Shown piece after piece: positions 4,232 through 62,833 of a DNA stretch of 64,000 bases; the first letter of the stretch is position 1; each line of letters starts with the position of its first letter. A program made the translations under genes and the position numbers. The stretch lies in sequence record OL780484.1; one strand, given 5' to 3'. Source of the DNA: Escherichia phage vB_EcoM-E33. The notes beneath the pieces were generated by a model, which was given only the letters and a program-made list of their open reading frames with translations, searched no databases and was not told the origin of the DNA.

Positions 4232-4332
4232 GCCTTGGAGTCGAGTTCTTGTTACTCTGTATCTTTGCTGTTATCCTAGGCCTGGCGACAGGCTTAGCTA
4301 TAGGTTTAATAGCAGCCCACTTTAAAAAGTAA
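4228..4332 (+). CDS. hydrophobic micro-protein, 34 aa, overlapping the gp52 stop (ATGA)
   Basis: translation MSLGVEFLLLCIFAVILGLATGLAIGLIAAHFKK; directly followed by a terminator. Confidence 0.3.
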   Translation: MSLGVEFLLLCIFAVILGLATGLAIGLIAAHFKK

Positions 4333-4356
4333 GGAACCTTCGGGTTCCTTTTTTGG
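4332..4356 (+). terminator. intrinsic terminator, stem aggaacc/ggttcct with UUCG loop and T-run
   Basis: hairpin plus TTTTTT read from sequence. Confidence 0.6.
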
Positions 4357-4373: not shown

Positions 4374-4403
4374 GTTTACATCTGCTTTAAACATGATACT
4401 ATA
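4374..4403 (+). promoter_or_regulatory. T4-type early promoter upstream of motA
   Basis: GTTTACA, spacer, GATACTATAG. Confidence 0.55.
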
Positions 4404-7769: not shown

Positions 7770-7777
7770 TATTTATA
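7770..7777 (-). promoter_or_regulatory. T4 late promoter TATAAATA for gene t
   Basis: plus-strand TATTTATA about 19 nt upstream of the t start codon. Confidence 0.6.
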
Positions 7778-7788
7778 GAGCTTATGCA

Positions 7789-8583
7789 CTATAGCCAGGA
7801 ACCGTAGATAACACCTGTATTATGCCAAGTAGGAGAACTTCCAGCAACAGCAGCTCCTGCGCCGCCGCCAGCGCCGACTTTTAGAACTTTACCACCATCA
7901 TTCCATGCGTTCTGGCCTGCGGCGCCAGCATCACCGCCATGACCTGAGTGGGCGTTACCATAATTGTATCCACCGCCAGGGCTTTCATAAGAAGCACCAC
8001 CGCCAGAGTATCCACCGCCGCCACCAGGGCCAAATGGACGTCCACCACCACCACCGATATCTTGCCAGTTAGCACCTGAGTGAGGACGATACGCAATGCC
8101 GCCACCGCCGCCGCCACCGCCACAGATAACCCCACCATTATTAATTCTTAAACGACCACCAATATCATTTACAATACAAGTTCCACCCCATTGGCCGTTG
8201 CCATCGCCACCCGAGTGGGTCCAACCACCTTGACCACCTCGGCCCCATATATGAACCCCACCACCAATATTCAATTGAACATATTCGTTTGGAGTATCCC
8301 CATACATAAAGAACAATGGAACATCACGGGTATAAGATACTAATGTACCTGTAAGATTAAACACAATAGGCGCACTACCAGCTTCAAAGCAACGGTCGCG
8401 GAACCACTGCCCATTAAAGTTATGGTCCCCACCTAAAGTATGAATAACTTCAACAGACCGGCCGTTCATATTACTCATCCAAAATGGGACACCCATTCTT
8501 AATCTTACAGCGGCTCCTGCCATCCAAGGGTCTCCTGTCTGCGCCCTTGCAGAAGTTCCTATCCACGGTCCTGCTACTGCCAT
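7789..8583 (-). CDS. 38: gp38 receptor-binding adhesin, T2-type with glycine-rich motifs
   Basis: 264 aa from the internal ATG preceded by GGAGG; poly-Gly blocks ([22 protein letters not shown]) separated by variable segments. Confidence 0.8.
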
Positions 8584-8614
8584 ATAAACCTCCAAGGGGC
8601 CGAAGCCCCTCTTA

Positions 8615-12640: not shown

Positions 12641-12672
12641 CGTAGAAAACGAAAAAGGAACCCGAAGGTTCC
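12641..12672 (-). terminator. intrinsic terminator after gene 35 (ggaacc-CGAA-ggttcc stem plus U-run on the minus strand)
   Basis: hairpin immediately 3-prime of the gp35 stop, followed by TTTTTCGTTTTC on the minus strand. Confidence 0.5.
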
Positions 12673-13794
12673 TTAATATTTTTCTCTAAATTCAGCGACC
12701 CAAACCTGACCAGGTTTAGTGCCTGTTTTATCATATAGCTGGGCTATGGTAGTACCCATATTTTTAGTTTCTGTACCAAAGTTCATACGAATACCGTTAA
12801 CACCAAATTCAGCGGGTTTTGGCTGAGGTTCTGATTCAGATATCTCACCGAACATAACATTTCGAACTCCACCTTGTCCGGCCGAAGCTGTTTTTCTGGC
12901 ATAAAGGGTAAAGTCTGTAGTACCTTCAGGAACCATTACTACCCGTTCAAATGTCATCCATGCACCAGCAGGAACGTTGGAAGGAACGTCCATATTAACT
13001 GTCCCGGTTAAAGCACCTGAGGCATTAAAAAATCTAACAGACATCTGAGAGGTCCCGACGTCTTTTAAAGCTTGGTCGCGCATTAATTGAAACTTAAGGT
13101 AAAAGAATTCACCTGGTTTCATATTATAATCTGTTAATGGGGTTGTAGGAGATTCGGTAGGAAATCGCTTAATTTCATCTCCATCATTGCTTAGATAAGT
13201 GCTTTCGTCTTCAACAATTCTGACAGGATATCCTGTACCACCAACGTCGCTGATATCATCAAATACCACTTCTAATGGGGTAGAAACATCTTCGACCAAT
13301 ACCCCATCATTATAAAGCACATGTTCCATTACTATAGCATTCCTTCCTGAAACATAAAATGCCGAATAAGACGGCTCGAAGCGGTCTATTAGCCATTTAG
13401 ATGGAAATGCGGTACTTCCTGCTGCACGGAACCAATCGATAAGTTTTTGTGAAGCATTTAATCTACCAGAAGATACTAAACAAACTATTCTATTAGCCGG
13501 TATAGAATTTATATACGTTATAAAAGCTTCAGAAATAACATCAAAATCTTTTGTAAAACTATAAGTTTTGTTAGCCACTATTTTGGGTTCAGCACTAACA
13601 TCGATTTCTATAAGGTTTAATCCATTTTGAAAATTCTGGGAACCGAAGTTCCCATCTTGAAATTTAACATATGCTTTTGTGGTAGACTTAGTACAACTAC
13701 CAGCTATACTAAGTTTATACCTCACAGCATTGTTTTCAGATAATGTAGGAACCTGGACATATCCTTGTCCAAATTCTGCCATAAATCTTTCCAT
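12673..13794 (-). CDS. 35: gp35 long tail fiber hinge protein
   Basis: 373 aa; synteny and size. Confidence 0.8.
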   Translation of the reverse strand: MERFMAEFGQGYVQVPTLSENNAVRYKLSIAGSCTKSTTKAYVKFQDGNFGSQNFQNGLNLIEIDVSAEPKIVANKTYSFTKDFDVISEAFITYINSIPANRIVCLVSSGRLNASQKLIDWFRAAGSTAFPSKWLIDRFEPSYSAFYVSGRNAIVMEHVLYNDGVLVEDVSTPLEVVFDDISDVGGTGYPVRIVEDESTYLSNDGDEIKRFPTESPTTPLTDYNMKPGEFFYLKFQLMRDQALKDVGTSQMSVRFFNASGALTGTVNMDVPSNVPAGAWMTFERVVMVPEGTTDFTLYARKTASAGQGGVRNVMFGEISESEPQPKPAEFGVNGIRMNFGTETKNMGTTIAQLYDKTGTKPGQVWVAEFREKY

Positions 13795-17884: not shown

Positions 17885-17892
17885 TATTTATA
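17885..17892 (-). promoter_or_regulatory. T4 late promoter TATAAATA for gene 34
   Basis: plus-strand TATTTATA about 33 nt upstream of the gp34 ATG. Confidence 0.6.
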
Positions 17893-21131: not shown

Positions 21132-21157
21132 GGGAAGACTTCGGTCTTCCCTTTTTG
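21132..21157 (+). terminator. intrinsic terminator after gene 32 (gggaagac-UUCG-gtcttccc plus T-run)
   Basis: hairpin plus TTTTT. Confidence 0.65.
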
Positions 21158-21167
21158 GCATTTAATG

Positions 21168-21196
21168 GTTTACAACGCCTTTAAACGTGATACTAT
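21168..21196 (+). promoter_or_regulatory. T4-type early promoter
   Basis: GTTTACA, spacer, GATACTATAG. Confidence 0.55.
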
Positions 21197-26635: not shown

Positions 26636-27814
26636 ATGTCTACAGTTTTTAATACCACCCCAGTTGATGTTTTAGTCGAACCGATGTTCTTTGGTTCAGG
26701 ATTGGGTATTGCTCGTTATGATATCCAACGCCATAAAGTATTCGAAGAGCTTTGTGAGAAGCAGTTGAGTTTTTTCTGGCGTCCAGAGGAAGTTAACTTG
26801 ATGATGGATGCTGCCCAGTTTAATAAGCTTCCACAATTCCAGCAAAATATTTTTACCAATAATCTGAAGTATCAATCACTTCTGGATAGTATCCAAGGAC
26901 GTGCTCCTTCTGCTGCACTTCAAGCCTTGATTTCAGACCCTAGCCTTGATACATGGGTGGCTACATGGACCTTTAGTGAGACTATTCACTCTCGTTCATA
27001 TACCCATATCATGCGTAACCTCTATACAGACCCGTCAAAGGTATTTGATGAAATTCTGTTAGATGACGCTATTATGAAACGTGCTGAATCTATTGGTCGT
27101 TATTACGACGACGTTATTGAGAAAACTCGCTATTGGCAGAATGCTAAAGCTGATATCGAATACCAAAAAGAAATTAATGCAGACGAAGACGATATTGAAG
27201 ATGCTATTGAGCATGAGATGTATTGGAAGCGTGAGCTAATGAAATCCCTTTACCTTTGCCTTCATGTAATCAACGCATTGGAAGCTATTCGTTTTTATGT
27301 ATCTTTCGCATGCACCTTTAACTTCCATAAAAACATGGAAATCATGGAAGGTAATGCTAAGATTATGAAGTTCATTGCACGTGATGAACAGCTTCACCTT
27401 AAAGGTACTCAGTACATTATTCGTCAACTCCAACTTGGTACTGACGGTGACGAATGGGTTAAAATTGCTCAAGAGTGTGAACAAGAAGCAGTTGATATTT
27501 TCATGGAAGTTAACCGTCAAGAAAAAGAATGGGCTGCTCACCTGTTCAAAGATGGTACTTGCCCTGGATTAAATACTCAGAACATGGGTGCTTTTGTCGA
27601 TTACCTGACAGTTTCTCGTATGAAGCAATGTGGCTTACCGTGTCCTATTACTGATGCTCCTGCCCGCCATCCTTATCCTTGGATTCGCGAATACCTGAAC
27701 TCTGATGCTGTACAGGCTGCTCCTCAGGAAGTGGAAATAAGTTCTTACCTTGTAGCACAAATTGATAACGATGTCGATGAAAAAGTAATGGCATCGTACA
27801 AGAAATATTTTTAA
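26636..27814 (+). CDS. nrdB: ribonucleotide reductase small subunit, uninterrupted
   Basis: 392 aa from MSTVFNT; matches the remembered T4 NrdB N-terminus; no intron. Confidence 0.9.
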   Translation: MSTVFNTTPVDVLVEPMFFGSGLGIARYDIQRHKVFEELCEKQLSFFWRPEEVNLMMDAAQFNKLPQFQQNIFTNNLKYQSLLDSIQGRAPSAALQALISDPSLDTWVATWTFSETIHSRSYTHIMRNLYTDPSKVFDEILLDDAIMKRAESIGRYYDDVIEKTRYWQNAKADIEYQKEINADEDDIEDAIEHEMYWKRELMKSLYLCLHVINALEAIRFYVSFACTFNFHKNMEIMEGNAKIMKFIARDEQLHLKGTQYIIRQLQLGTDGDEWVKIAQECEQEAVDIFMEVNRQEKEWAAHLFKDGTCPGLNTQNMGAFVDYLTVSRMKQCGLPCPITDAPARHPYPWIREYLNSDAVQAAPQEVEISSYLVAQIDNDVDEKVMASYKKYF

Positions 27815-27841
27815 GGAATGGGGCTTCGGCCCCTTATTGCT

Positions 27842-28255
27842 ATGAAAGAAATCGCAGACGAATTTAGCTTTATCAAGTACGTCACCCTAGAACTCCAAGA
27901 TGACGCCACCATAGCTCCACTCACAGTACCAAATAAACAAAATGTCATATATGCTATAGCGGTTGATGATATACTAGTCTACGTCGGGAAGACTAAAAAT
28001 CTTCGTAAGCGCATCAACTACTACCGAACCGCTATTAATCGTAAGGACCAAACGTCGGATTCGACTAAGTCCATTCTGATTCATGAAGCATTAATGGCAG
28101 GTAAAAAGGTGGAGTTCTATGCACGGCAGTGCTTTAATCTGTCGATGACTAACGAACTTGGAACTATGTCAGTTGAGACCATGTCTCTTGAAGAGCCAAT
28201 GTTCATAAAGAAATTTAATCCACCTTGGAATACCCAACATAGGATAAAGCAATGA
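27842..28255 (+). CDS. denA: endonuclease II
   Basis: 137 aa from MKEIADEF; near-identical blocks to remembered T4 DenA (VYVGKTKNLRKRINYYRTAINRKD-TSDSTKS, FYARQCFNLSMTNELGTM). Confidence 0.9.
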   Translation: MKEIADEFSFIKYVTLELQDDATIAPLTVPNKQNVIYAIAVDDILVYVGKTKNLRKRINYYRTAINRKDQTSDSTKSILIHEALMAGKKVEFYARQCFNLSMTNELGTMSVETMSLEEPMFIKKFNPPWNTQHRIKQ

Positions 28256-35778: not shown

Positions 35779-35783
35779 GTTAT

Positions 35784-35808
35784 GGGACTCTTCGGAGTCC
35801 CATTTTTG
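35784..35808 (+). terminator. intrinsic terminator (gggactc-UUCG-gagtccc plus T-run)
   Basis: hairpin plus TTTTT. Confidence 0.65.
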
Positions 35809-36306: not shown

Positions 36307-36672
36307 ATGAACTACATCAACTTCGAACGTAAATATGTTTCTAACGGTATCGCTGGTTCTTCTGAAGTTATTTGCCTGTGGAAACACAACAACGGCGCGG
36401 TGTGCGAAATCGAACAGTGCATGACTCCTAACTACGTTTATATGCGCTTTGAAAATGGTATTACGGTTTCAATCACAATGGAAGGTTCTACTTTTAAAAT
36501 CGCTTTAGATGATGATTTCCGTCAACGTGATTTAGGTACCCATCCTTGCTGGAACGGTGTTAATCGTAAGCTTCTGGTTAAAACTTGGATTCGACACATC
36601 CTGAGCAACCGAGCTAAACCTGAACACCTGGAAGCAATCTTTGATGTAGTTCTGAACGAATTCGACATCTAA
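36307..36672 (+). CDS. hypothetical protein, 121 aa
   Basis: ORF track; RBS GGAGAATAAA. Confidence 0.55.
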   Translation: MNYINFERKYVSNGIAGSSEVICLWKHNNGAVCEIEQCMTPNYVYMRFENGITVSITMEGSTFKIALDDDFRQRDLGTHPCWNGVNRKLLVKTWIRHILSNRAKPEHLEAIFDVVLNEFDI

Positions 36673-36713
36673 TCTTAAAAATGGAGGCTTCGGCCTCCTT
36701 TGAGGAAAATATT

Positions 36714-37001
36714 ATGTTTATGACCACTTATTTCGATACTCGTAAAAATTTCTGTGAAGTTGTTTTCTCTAAAGCAGGTAAAGACGTTCCTGCCGACAAA
36801 CAACCTACTCGTGAATCTATTAAGGCCTATGCTGATGTTGTATGTCCAGTAGAATTCCGTACTGTTAATGGTCGTGATACCTTAGCAATCACTAAGCTCA
36901 ACCGTGATATCAATATCGACCCTAGTGCCGCCCGTGAAGTCAACACCTCTGACATCTACGGCGGTAATGTTAAATCACACGGCTTTCAGATGAGGTTCTA
37001 A
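36714..37001 (+). CDS. hypothetical protein, 95 aa
   Basis: ATG after GAGGAAAATATT; upstream hairpin ggaggc-UUCG-gcctcc. Confidence 0.5.
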   Translation: MFMTTYFDTRKNFCEVVFSKAGKDVPADKQPTRESIKAYADVVCPVEFRTVNGRDTLAITKLNRDINIDPSAAREVNTSDIYGGNVKSHGFQMRF

Positions 37002-40312: not shown

Positions 40313-40482
40313 TGAAAGTTTATTTAGAAACAATTGTTATATCAAATACAAATATTACGGCAGTCTCTCAAATCATCCTTGATTTTGAGGACGAAATAGC
40401 TTTTGCTGATTTTAAAGATACCTTCGATGGCTATGAAAAAGGCCCTACATTCGAAGTATATCGTACACTGTTACCACTTTAA
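40312..40482 (+). CDS. hypothetical acidic protein, 56 aa
   Basis: ATG overlapping the ligase stop (TAATG); stop lies within the terminator stem. Confidence 0.35.
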   Translation: MKVYLETIVISNTNITAVSQIILDFEDEIAFADFKDTFDGYEKGPTFEVYRTLLPL

Positions 40483-40499
40483 GGCCTTCGGGCCTTTTC
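40482..40499 (+). terminator. intrinsic terminator (aggcc-UUCG-ggcct plus TTTT)
   Basis: hairpin plus T-run. Confidence 0.5.
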
Positions 40500-46993: not shown

Positions 46994-47002
46994 ACCCCTA
47001 AA

Positions 47003-47026
47003 GGAGAGCATATGCTCTCCTTTTTT
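47003..47026 (+). terminator. intrinsic terminator (palindrome ggagagcatatgctctcc plus TTTTTT) between convergent units
   Basis: perfect 18-nt palindrome plus T-run. Confidence 0.65.
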
Positions 47027-58391: not shown

Positions 58392-58395
58392 TTAT

Positions 58396-58415
58396 GGGCC
58401 GCAAGGCCCATTTTG
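58396..58415 (+). terminator. intrinsic terminator after hoc (gggcc-GCAA-ggccc plus ATTTTG)
   Basis: hairpin plus short T-run. Confidence 0.5.
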
Positions 58416-59826: not shown

Positions 59827-59834
59827 ACGATAAA

Positions 59835-59860
59835 GGGACCTTACGGTCCCTTTTATTTTT
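59835..59860. terminator. bidirectional terminator between convergent rnlB and gene 24 copy A (gggacc-UUAC-ggtccc, T-runs on both sides)
   Basis: hairpin with flanking T/A runs. Confidence 0.55.
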
Positions 59861-62444: not shown

Positions 62445-62452
62445 TATTTATA
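62445..62452 (-). promoter_or_regulatory. late promoter TATAAATA for gene 24
   Basis: plus-strand TATTTATA about 28 nt upstream of the gp24 ATG. Confidence 0.55.
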
Positions 62453-62784: not shown

Positions 62785-62799
62785 TACAGAAACAAGAAT

Positions 62800-62817
62800 G
62801 GGAGACCGAAGTCTCCC
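62800..62817 (-). terminator. terminator hairpin downstream of gene 23 on the minus strand (gggagac-UUCG-gtctccc)
   Basis: hairpin 17 nt after the gp23 stop, followed on the minus strand by a U-rich tract. Confidence 0.5.
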
Positions 62818-62833
62818 ATAATAAGGTTATATC

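Follow-up and report, generated by a model that had tools for sequence, protein, structure and literature searches.

Two gene junctions of Escherichia phage vB_EcoM-E33, one between gp37 and gp38 and the other between nrdB and denA, carry the same 14-nucleotide (nt) sequence, GGGGCTTCGGCCCC, which is predicted to fold in RNA into a hairpin with a UUCG tetraloop. Our analysis of the 64,000-nt stretch of sequence record OL780484.1 that holds both junctions (hereafter the window) makes it probable, with moderate confidence, that the two copies are independent, convergent C(UUCG)G junction hairpins, of which the denA copy forms a split translation initiation site and the gp38 copy a boundary. Both would be sense-strand RNA elements within polycistronic mRNAs, read through by RNA polymerase, and the role of each would be set by exactly where it lies with respect to the next gene's ribosome-binding site. 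The observations behind this reading are the enrichment of such hairpins, their strand bias and position, the need for read-through, a structure conserved with swaps of the loop, and a compensated spacing at denA. The 14-mer was present exactly twice in the window. The first-pass annotation had located the plus-strand copy at 27820-27833, where it was found, and had given both contexts correctly by sequence, with the gp38 copy just upstream of the gp38 Shine-Dalgarno (SD) sequence, whereas the minus-strand copy lies at 8596-8609, 5 nt from the 8601-8614 it had reported. By its sequence the phage is T4-like, of the genus Dhakavirus; two window probes of 1.7-2 kb gave matches of 99.5-99.9% around nrdB-denA in QL01 and WG01 and of about 96% in Bp7.

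The nrdB/denA junction as a putative split initiation site

At the nrdB/denA junction, which reads TTT-TAA-GGA-AT-GGGGCTTCGGCCCC-TTATTGCT-ATG-AAA-GAA on the plus strand, the nrdB stop codon TAA (27812-27814) overlaps the denA SD, AAGGA (27813-27817; both within 27812-27817). The hairpin GGGGC-UUCG-GCCCC (27820-27833; -9.6 kcal/mol, like all hairpin energies here a nearest-neighbour prediction) stands between this SD and the denA start codon ATG (27842-27844), from which it is separated by a pyrimidine-rich 8-nt spacer, UUAUUGCU, without a purine run (spacer and start codon together at 27834-27844). The distance from AAGGA to ATG 27842 is 24 nt, and the hairpin would loop out 14 nt of it, leaving an effective spacing of about 10 nt; we infer that it would enhance initiation by bringing SD and AUG together.

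Split initiation regions have been described before (Gold 1988; Nivinskas et al. 1999; Malys & Nivinskas 2009, as summarised in PMC3014915 and PMC7297116). In T4 the hairpin of gene 38 reduces an SD-AUG distance of 22 nt to 5 and that of gene 25 reduces one of 27 nt to 11 (PMC3014915, PMC7297116), and destabilising mutations in these hairpins lower translation (Uzan & Miller 2010, PMC3014915; Aseev et al. 2020, PMC7297116). The T4 sequence aggagAGGGGCTTCGGCCCttctaaatATG reproduced the 22-nt figure for gene 38, where the region reads aggag-AGGGGCTTCGGCCC-ttctaaat-ATG. The denA junction resembles it closely, each having an SD, 0-2 nt, a C(UUCG)G hairpin, 8 nt and an AUG, and the fall from 24 nt to about 10 nt at denA lies inside the proven range of 5-11 nt. 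It differs in that the denA SD overlaps the upstream stop codon. Among the split sites named in the two reviews (only 38 and 25), denA was absent, the older primary literature being unchecked, and a literature search on the denA translation start returned nothing specific. The denA junction thus appears to be a third split site after T4 38 and 25, and its relatives would offer a natural series of stems and loops for studying how the 30S subunit accommodates a hairpin.

The junction was compared in 27 related loci and T4, from T-even, RB69-like and Dhakavirus-type genomes, which gave 12 distinct variants. In 11 of the 12, TAAGG(A) was followed after 1-3 nt by a GC-rich hairpin and, 6-9 nt beyond it, by ATG. 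Nine stems (GGGGC, AGGGGC, CAGGGC, TAGGGC, GAGGGC, TGGGCC, AGGGCC, GGGAGAC and GGGAG) and five loops (UUCG, UUUG, GCAA, GUAA and CUUGA) were in use, the T4 hairpin being UGGGCC-GCAA-GGCCCA. The AGG-to-AUG distance was 24-25 nt, or 29 nt in the sole variant with an 18-nt hairpin; with the hairpin subtracted it came to 8-11 nt in all 11 hairpin-bearing variants, and a purine-rich SD was not present in the spacer of any denA junction variant. When the 11 variants were aligned on the loop, gap-free and from per-sequence hairpin calls, a procedure biased towards structure, 98.5% of cells were paired, 4 of the 6 pairs showed compensatory changes, and the covariation score, 0.636 compared with a shuffled value of 0.197, was reached by none of the 500 shuffles. 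A conserved position combined with a loop type that varies (UUCG or GNRA) points to a structural role over recognition of sequence. In the sole relative without a hairpin at this junction (L027, about 560-606), the nrdB stop overlaps the denA start (ATGA), an alternative form of coupling.

Public annotations start denA at the hairpin, at the ATG corresponding to 27818 in Bp7 (L001, 21907) and QL01 and at a GTG in the T4 RefSeq entry (L004, 17951). Were this correct, the hairpin would be mere coding sequence, a palindrome encoding residues 2-5 (GLRP) of a protein begun at ATG 27818. We regard this as highly improbable: it has the GenBank and RefSeq starts of Bp7 and T4 on its side, together with an in-frame ATG or GTG in 3 of the 12 variants, but the other 9 have no in-frame start upstream of the downstream ATG, some having an in-frame stop instead. 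Furthermore, AAGGA abuts ATG 27818 with zero spacer, the stem covaries but the amino acids of the eight putative extra codons are not conserved, and the chain of crystallised T4 EndoII (PDB 2WSH) begins MKEIA after 7 extra residues. Because of the 2WSH chain, the missing upstream starts, the absent SD spacer and the unconserved extension, ATG 27842 was preferred; it is probably the real denA start, and the GenBank/RefSeq starts at the hairpin in T4 and Bp7 are probably wrong. The annotated Bp7 start of gene 30.6 also adjoins or overlaps a hairpin (window 36681; Bp7 L001 30781), and here too the start is probably a downstream ATG, at 36714, and the Bp7 annotation wrong.

Several points weigh against the denA hairpin as an enhancer of initiation. 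The covariation comes from an alignment with the bias described above, and unguided MAFFT/RNAalifold on the 12 variants placed the stems in differing registers and gave a weak, blurred consensus. ATG 27818 is in frame in this phage and is a conceivable minor start. A hairpin between SD and AUG could hold the nuclease gene weakly translated instead of enhancing its translation, and if ribosomes that terminate at the nrdB stop, which lies 27 nt upstream, were to reinitiate, the geometry of the SD could be of secondary importance. Finally, of the 8 nt that follow the stem 4-7 are T in every denA variant, and the terminator consensus scan listed the denA copy as terminator-like, so that partial termination could be an additional role of the hairpin or even its principal one.

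The tail bears on an explanation of both copies as leaky Rho-independent terminators, or attenuators, placed after nrdB or gp37 and passed by the rest of the polymerases. The denA copy would suit it with the tail TTATTGCT (5 T in 8) and with the T-richness kept in all variants; a T4 mobE hairpin with a short U-tract stops 30-50% of transcripts (Wilson & Edgell 2009, PMC2790892), and the window holds five or six further UUCG hairpins that are plainly candidate terminators. We nevertheless hold attenuation to be unlikely. The gp38 copy has no sense-strand U-tract (UGGAGGUU), the tails of several denA variants are interrupted (GAUUUCAU, ACUUUAGU, UCUGUU), and neither denA nor gp38 has a promoter of its own within reach. 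Attenuation would also leave unexplained both the conserved effective SD-AUG spacing and the absence of any other SD. Hairpins without a following U-tract had been put forward in the first-pass annotation as stability or processing elements rather than terminators. The lack of a U-tract was borne out for the gp38 copy (UGGAGGUU) and not for the denA copy, whose tail (UUAUUGCU, 5 of 8) is moderately U-rich. Neither copy looks like an ordinary terminator: the SD or ATG of the next, co-transcribed gene lies within 1-8 nt, which leaves no space for a promoter, so that expression of gp38 and of denA depends on read-through.

The gp37/gp38 junction as a putative boundary

On the minus strand the gp37/gp38 junction reads, 5' to 3', gp37 stop codon TAA (8617-8615), TAAG, AGGGGCTTCGGCCCCT (8610-8595), T, GGAGG, TTTAT, ATG. 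The hairpin, AGGGGC-UUCG-GCCCCU (8595-8610, with the 14-mer as its core at 8596-8609), has a stem of 6 base pairs (bp), including a flanking A-U pair, and a predicted energy of -11.2 kcal/mol. It begins 4 nt past the gp37 stop and ends 1 nt ahead of the gp38 initiation region (8581-8593), which by sequence consists of GGAGG (8593-8589), the spacer UUUAU and AUG (8583-8581). As the SD comes after the hairpin, the gp38 copy is no split site, in which it differs from T4 gene 38; GGAGG stands 5 nt before the ATG, compared with the more than about 20 nt that marks a split site. Translation of the gene gave a T2-type gp38 adhesin, and its annotated Bp7 homologue uses the same ATG.

The position of this hairpin was conserved in a sample of 13 related loci, all with the T2-type gp38 adhesin: it stood 0-2 nt 5' of GGAG(G) in 13 of 13. 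Its stems were AGGGGC or AGGGCC, related by a compensatory G-C to C-G swap, with the loops UUCG, UUAG and CUCG; T2-like phages had GGGGC stems with triloops, and ATT, AAC and AAAT were further loops listed. The gp38 of T4 is unrelated, yet AGAGGGGCTTCGGCCC directly follows T4 gene 37. The hairpin therefore appears to be tied to the gene 37 3' end, an SD being either supplied by the gp38 cassette or missing from it. Scanning the minus strand for the late promoter motif (TATAAATA) gave three matches only: 17885-17892 and 7770-7777, which precede gene 34 and t respectively, and 62445-62452. None was found between 37 and 38, and gp38 is therefore transcribed through the hairpin.

Most likely the gp37/gp38 hairpin acts as a fixed structural boundary, which may shield the gp37 cistron on its 3' side from 3'-to-5' exonucleases and may prevent the neighbouring SD from pairing over long range. 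It counts against this part of the reading that a boundary or stability role is drawn from the conservation of position. Read on the plus strand, 8595-8610 has a CGAA loop and is followed by CTTATTATTT; this form, antisense to gp37/gp38, had a terminator-like score, and in the consensus scan the antisense strand was the only one to score. It could stop early-direction antisense transcription running from asiA through t and gp38.

Compatible with the boundary, and with the split site at denA, is a role in mRNA stability or processing, the classical idea for the CUUCGG hairpins of T4, in which each hairpin would block 3'-to-5' exonucleases after endonucleolytic cleavage, protecting gp37 or nrdB, or would shield the 5' end of the downstream fragment. 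We give this an appreciable but clearly lesser chance. Each hairpin begins 4-6 nt past the upstream stop codon, energies of -9.6 to -11.2 kcal/mol are predicted for as little as 14-16 nt, UUCG and GNRA loops replaced one another at a kept position as they might in a generic stable plug, and CUUCGG hairpins are strand-specific across T4 (Wolk et al. 2020, PMC7165471). However, an exonuclease barrier needs neither the SD-AUG spacing compensated for hairpin length at denA nor the distance of 0-5 nt to the SD at other junctions, and the T2-like relatives make do with weaker triloop hairpins at gp37/gp38. A literature search for 3'-end or Term-seq data on T4-like phages gave nothing usable, and none for these sites. 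The stability or processing role proposed in the first-pass annotation is thus still tenable for the gp38 copy, while at denA the comparative data favour a translational role through the split SD and AUG.

Two kinds of processing site were considered and rejected. The stems, at only 5-6 bp, rule out an RNase III substrate, by what is generally known of the stem length this enzyme expects. RegB cleaves at GGAG in early mRNAs; the denA SD is AAGGA, the SDs of 30.6 and of the gene after stp are GAGGAAAA, and gp38 is a late gene.

UUCG hairpins across the window and the identity of the two copies

The window was scanned for perfect stems of at least 5 bp around TTCG, with 100 dinucleotide-preserving shuffles as the null. 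There were 11 such hairpins (starting at 2526, 4331, 8595, 12655, 13637, 21132, 27820, 35782, 36683, 40481 and 62798) against a mean of 0.47 and a maximum of 3 in the shuffles, and no other tetraloop sequence occurred more than 4 times in the same scan; the first-pass annotation had left it to such a count whether the hairpins exceed chance, and they do. All 11 have a C-G closing pair, and in all 11 it is the sense strand of the local genes that carries UUCG, not CGAA. Nine of the 11 fall in the non-coding DNA, which makes up 6.5% of the window by a crude gene map in which two over-extended open reading frames were corrected. About 20 distinct perfect hairpins were found in this non-coding DNA, and the UUCG type accounts for 9 of the roughly 13 strongest. 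No Rfam family reached the gathering threshold anywhere in the window. The related hairpins named in the first-pass annotation all exist, although of their positions only 21132-21151 was exact: the one given as 36691-36706 lies 8 nt away at 36683-36698, and 35784-35801 and 40482-40495 are real but only the inner parts of 35782-35803 and 40481-40496. Five further hairpins (2526-2539, 4331-4350, 12655-12674, 13637-13654 and 62798-62819) were added to these.

The identity of the two 14-mers, which might suggest a common element, fits convergence on a G-rich 5-bp stem. With position-specific composition, the probability of at least one pair of identical 5-bp stems among 11 hairpins was 0.88 (0.20 with uniform base composition). 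The flanks of the two copies are unrelated. The exact 14-mer also occurred at no fewer than 120 loci of unrelated viral contigs, a number that marks it as a generic motif and is no measure of enrichment, as a rough chance estimate gives hundreds of occurrences. At other T4-like junctions GGGGCTTCGGCCCC was found between nrdB and denA (L016, L029) and between 30.7 and 30.6 (L169-L171). With such a coincidence of G-rich stems expected, nothing shared in the flanks and the 14-mer widespread elsewhere, the identity says little; on these comparisons it is convergence on a favoured short stem, with no common element. An origin of the identical pair by duplication or as a mobile element was rejected in view of the unrelated flanks and the probability of 0.88.

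A repeated or mobile DNA element, or a recombination linker resembling the promoter-early stem-loop (PeSL) cassettes of T4-like phages (Arbiol et al. 2010; Comeau et al. 2014, PMC4122927), would make the two copies identical by descent or by gene conversion, and it would be the DNA that matters. For this there is the 14-nt identity itself, the 16-nt AGAGGGGCTTCGGCCC common to this phage and T4 at gp37/gp38 despite unrelated gp38 genes and differing flanks, a separate identical 20-nt pair at 4331 and 12655, and the documentation of PeSLs in T4-like phages (Comeau et al. 2014, PMC4122927), whose repeated stem-loops likewise lie in intergenic DNA. Nonetheless, the chance of such an element is very slight. 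Beyond the shared 5-bp stem, for which coincidence suffices (P = 0.88), the flanks of the 14-mers have nothing in common, the 14-mer is spread over the unrelated viral contigs (120 loci or more), and the constant placing of UUCG on the sense strand (11/11) is not required of an element acting as DNA. Each junction has, moreover, kept its own hairpin across relatives through compensatory changes. No promoter-like match was found after 8595-8610 (-), from which it is 11 nt to the following ATG, or after 27820-27833 (+), from which it is 8 nt. Without an early promoter after them, the two hairpins are not PeSLs, and they also differ from these in lying at conserved core junctions rather than in hyperplastic regions. 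The hairpins at 4331 and 21132 come closer to a PeSL, being followed by TTTACA-N16-TACTAT, whose hexamers match the PST/T4-type TTTACW-N17-TAYWAT with a spacer of 16 instead of 17.

C(UUCG)G hairpins at T4 gene junctions have been textbook matter since 1988, when extraordinarily stable ones were reportedly first described in T4 intercistronic regions by Tuerk et al. (PNAS 85:1364). Such junction hairpins being already known, what is modestly new here is the denA split site with the annotation errors linked to it. In T4, the flanks are self-complementary at more than half of the CTTCGG sites on the sense strand and at none of those on the antisense strand (Wolk et al. 2020, PMC7165471). The hairpins of the window share with those of T4 the UUCG loop, the C-G closing pair, the short G/C stem, the junction site and the sense-strand bias, and positional homologues of T4 hairpins were found at stp, 35/36, 37/38, 30.9/30.8 and alt.1/alt. 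They differ in having UUCG where T4 has GCAA (nrdB/denA), UUCA (30.7/30.6) and CUAGA (after gene 32). As T4 uses other loops at these junctions, UUCG is preferred and not obligatory.

Hairpins at the remaining junctions

The hairpin GGAGGC-UUCG-GCCUCC (36683-36698, +) lies between the 30.7 stop and the 30.6 SD, GAGGAAAA, which follows 3 nt downstream, ahead of the 30.6 ATG at 36714. As at the gp38 junction, the arrangement is conserved: every relative compared had the hairpin 2-5 nt 5' of GAGG, its stem being GGAGGC or GGGGC and its loop UUCG, GAAA, UUUG or UUCA. In Dhakavirus variants a weak lower stem (CUUAAA with UUUGAG; 36672-36706) would take in part of the 30.6 SD, an extension that the T4-type relatives do not have. 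The stp-end C(UUCG)G hairpin, GCGUC-UUCG-GACGC (2526-2539, +), is made up of the final four codons (VFGR) of the stp homologue, with 4 nt between its end and the following gene's SD, again GAGGAAAA; T4 has this arrangement too, with GGCGTCTTCGGACGCC at the stp position. The homologue itself, 25 amino acids resembling the T4 Stp peptide (2465-2542, +), is without annotation at that place in Bp7.

Taking these junctions together with gp38 and denA, stable tetraloop hairpins (UUCG, GNRA) might be interchangeable, modular organisers of ribosome-binding sites at many junctions of T4-like phages, standing either between SD and AUG (denA, T4 38 and 25) or 0-5 nt 5' of the SD (gp38, 30.6 and the gene after stp). 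They could directly promote 30S binding or reinitiation, for instance through a coaxial stack with the SD-anti-SD helix or by keeping terminating ribosomes from sliding backwards. This is a speculative extension, and we would not expect it to hold as a general rule; if it did, the split site would be no peculiarity of two genes but an instance of a junction architecture that is general and has gone unrecognised.

UUCG tetraloops are reportedly enriched in E. coli terminators, a finding attributed to d'Aubenton Carafa et al. in 1990. The hairpins at 4331, 12655, 21132, 35782 and 62798, and perhaps that at 40481, look like ordinary intrinsic terminators, with U-tracts following, and the first five fit Rho-independent terminators with a UUCG loop fully. 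The two 14-mer hairpins differ from these in having no proper U-tract (gp38) or a weak one (denA) and in being directly followed by the ribosome-binding site or AUG of a promoterless gene. The hairpin after gene 52 (4331-4350, +) has an 8-bp stem and is followed by UUUUGGGUUU; that overlapping the gene 35 stop codon (12655-12674, -), followed by UUUCGUUUUC, consists of the same 20 nt. T4 has an imperfect UUCG hairpin, a T-run and TATAAATA in the 35/36 intergenic region. The gene 32 hairpin (21132-21151, +) has an 8-bp stem followed by UUUUU. The hairpin after 30.9 (35782-35803, +) has a 9-bp stem followed by UUUUGUUU, where T4 has AGGACTCCTTCGGGAGTCCT followed by TTTTT, and the hairpin after gene 23 (62798-62819, -), identical in Bp7, has a 9-bp stem followed by UCUUGUUU. 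AAGGCC-UUCG-GGCCUU, at the 3' end of alt.1 before alt (40481-40496, +), is a weak terminator candidate; its T4 homologue at alt.1/alt is a 10-bp UUCG hairpin followed by TTTAT. The remaining hairpin, UGGGAAC-UUCG-GUUCCCA (13637-13654, -), lies within the gene 35 coding sequence, at about codons 47-53; its stem is 7 bp and it is identical in Bp7.

Some of these hairpins resemble one another closely. The 20 nt shared by 4331-4350 (+) and 12655-12674 (-), AAGGAACCTTCGGGTTCCTT, are followed by TTT in both, the flanks are unrelated, and both hairpins are identical in Bp7. The identity of their 8-bp stems had a probability of about 0.15 even under a generous null and is harder to ascribe to chance than that of the 5-bp stems; it may reflect gene conversion. 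The hairpins at 35782-35803 (+) and 62798-62819 (-) have in common ATGGGA-NN-CTTCGG-NN-TCCCAT followed by T[T/C]TTGTTTCT, with a compensatory 2-bp swap in the stem between them. Early-promoter-like sequences, TTTACA-N16-TACTAT with an upstream TG, were found at 4375-4402 and 21169-21196 (+). They lie downstream of the terminator-like UUCG hairpins at 4331 and 21132, at a distance of about 20-25 nt, and form with them a composite of terminator and early promoter that resembles a PeSL cassette.

The order of genes in the window is that of annotated Bp7: denB, ndd, gene 52, motA and asiA come first, followed by t, 38, 37, 36, 35 and 34 on the minus strand, then by rnh, 32, frd, td, nrdA, nrdB, denA, rnlA, pseT, cd, 31 and rIII, and lastly by 30.x, 30 and alt, with baseplate and head genes thereafter. 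The remaining strong hairpins of the non-coding DNA have GNRA loops (58394, 59832) or are palindromic (47000). A GCAA tetraloop hairpin stands after hoc (58394-58411) and a GUAA tetraloop hairpin after gene 24 (59832-59853, -), and 47000-47023, which lies between alt.-3 and gene 54, two convergent genes, and forms a perfect palindrome of 10 bp around an ATAT loop, is a candidate bidirectional terminator.

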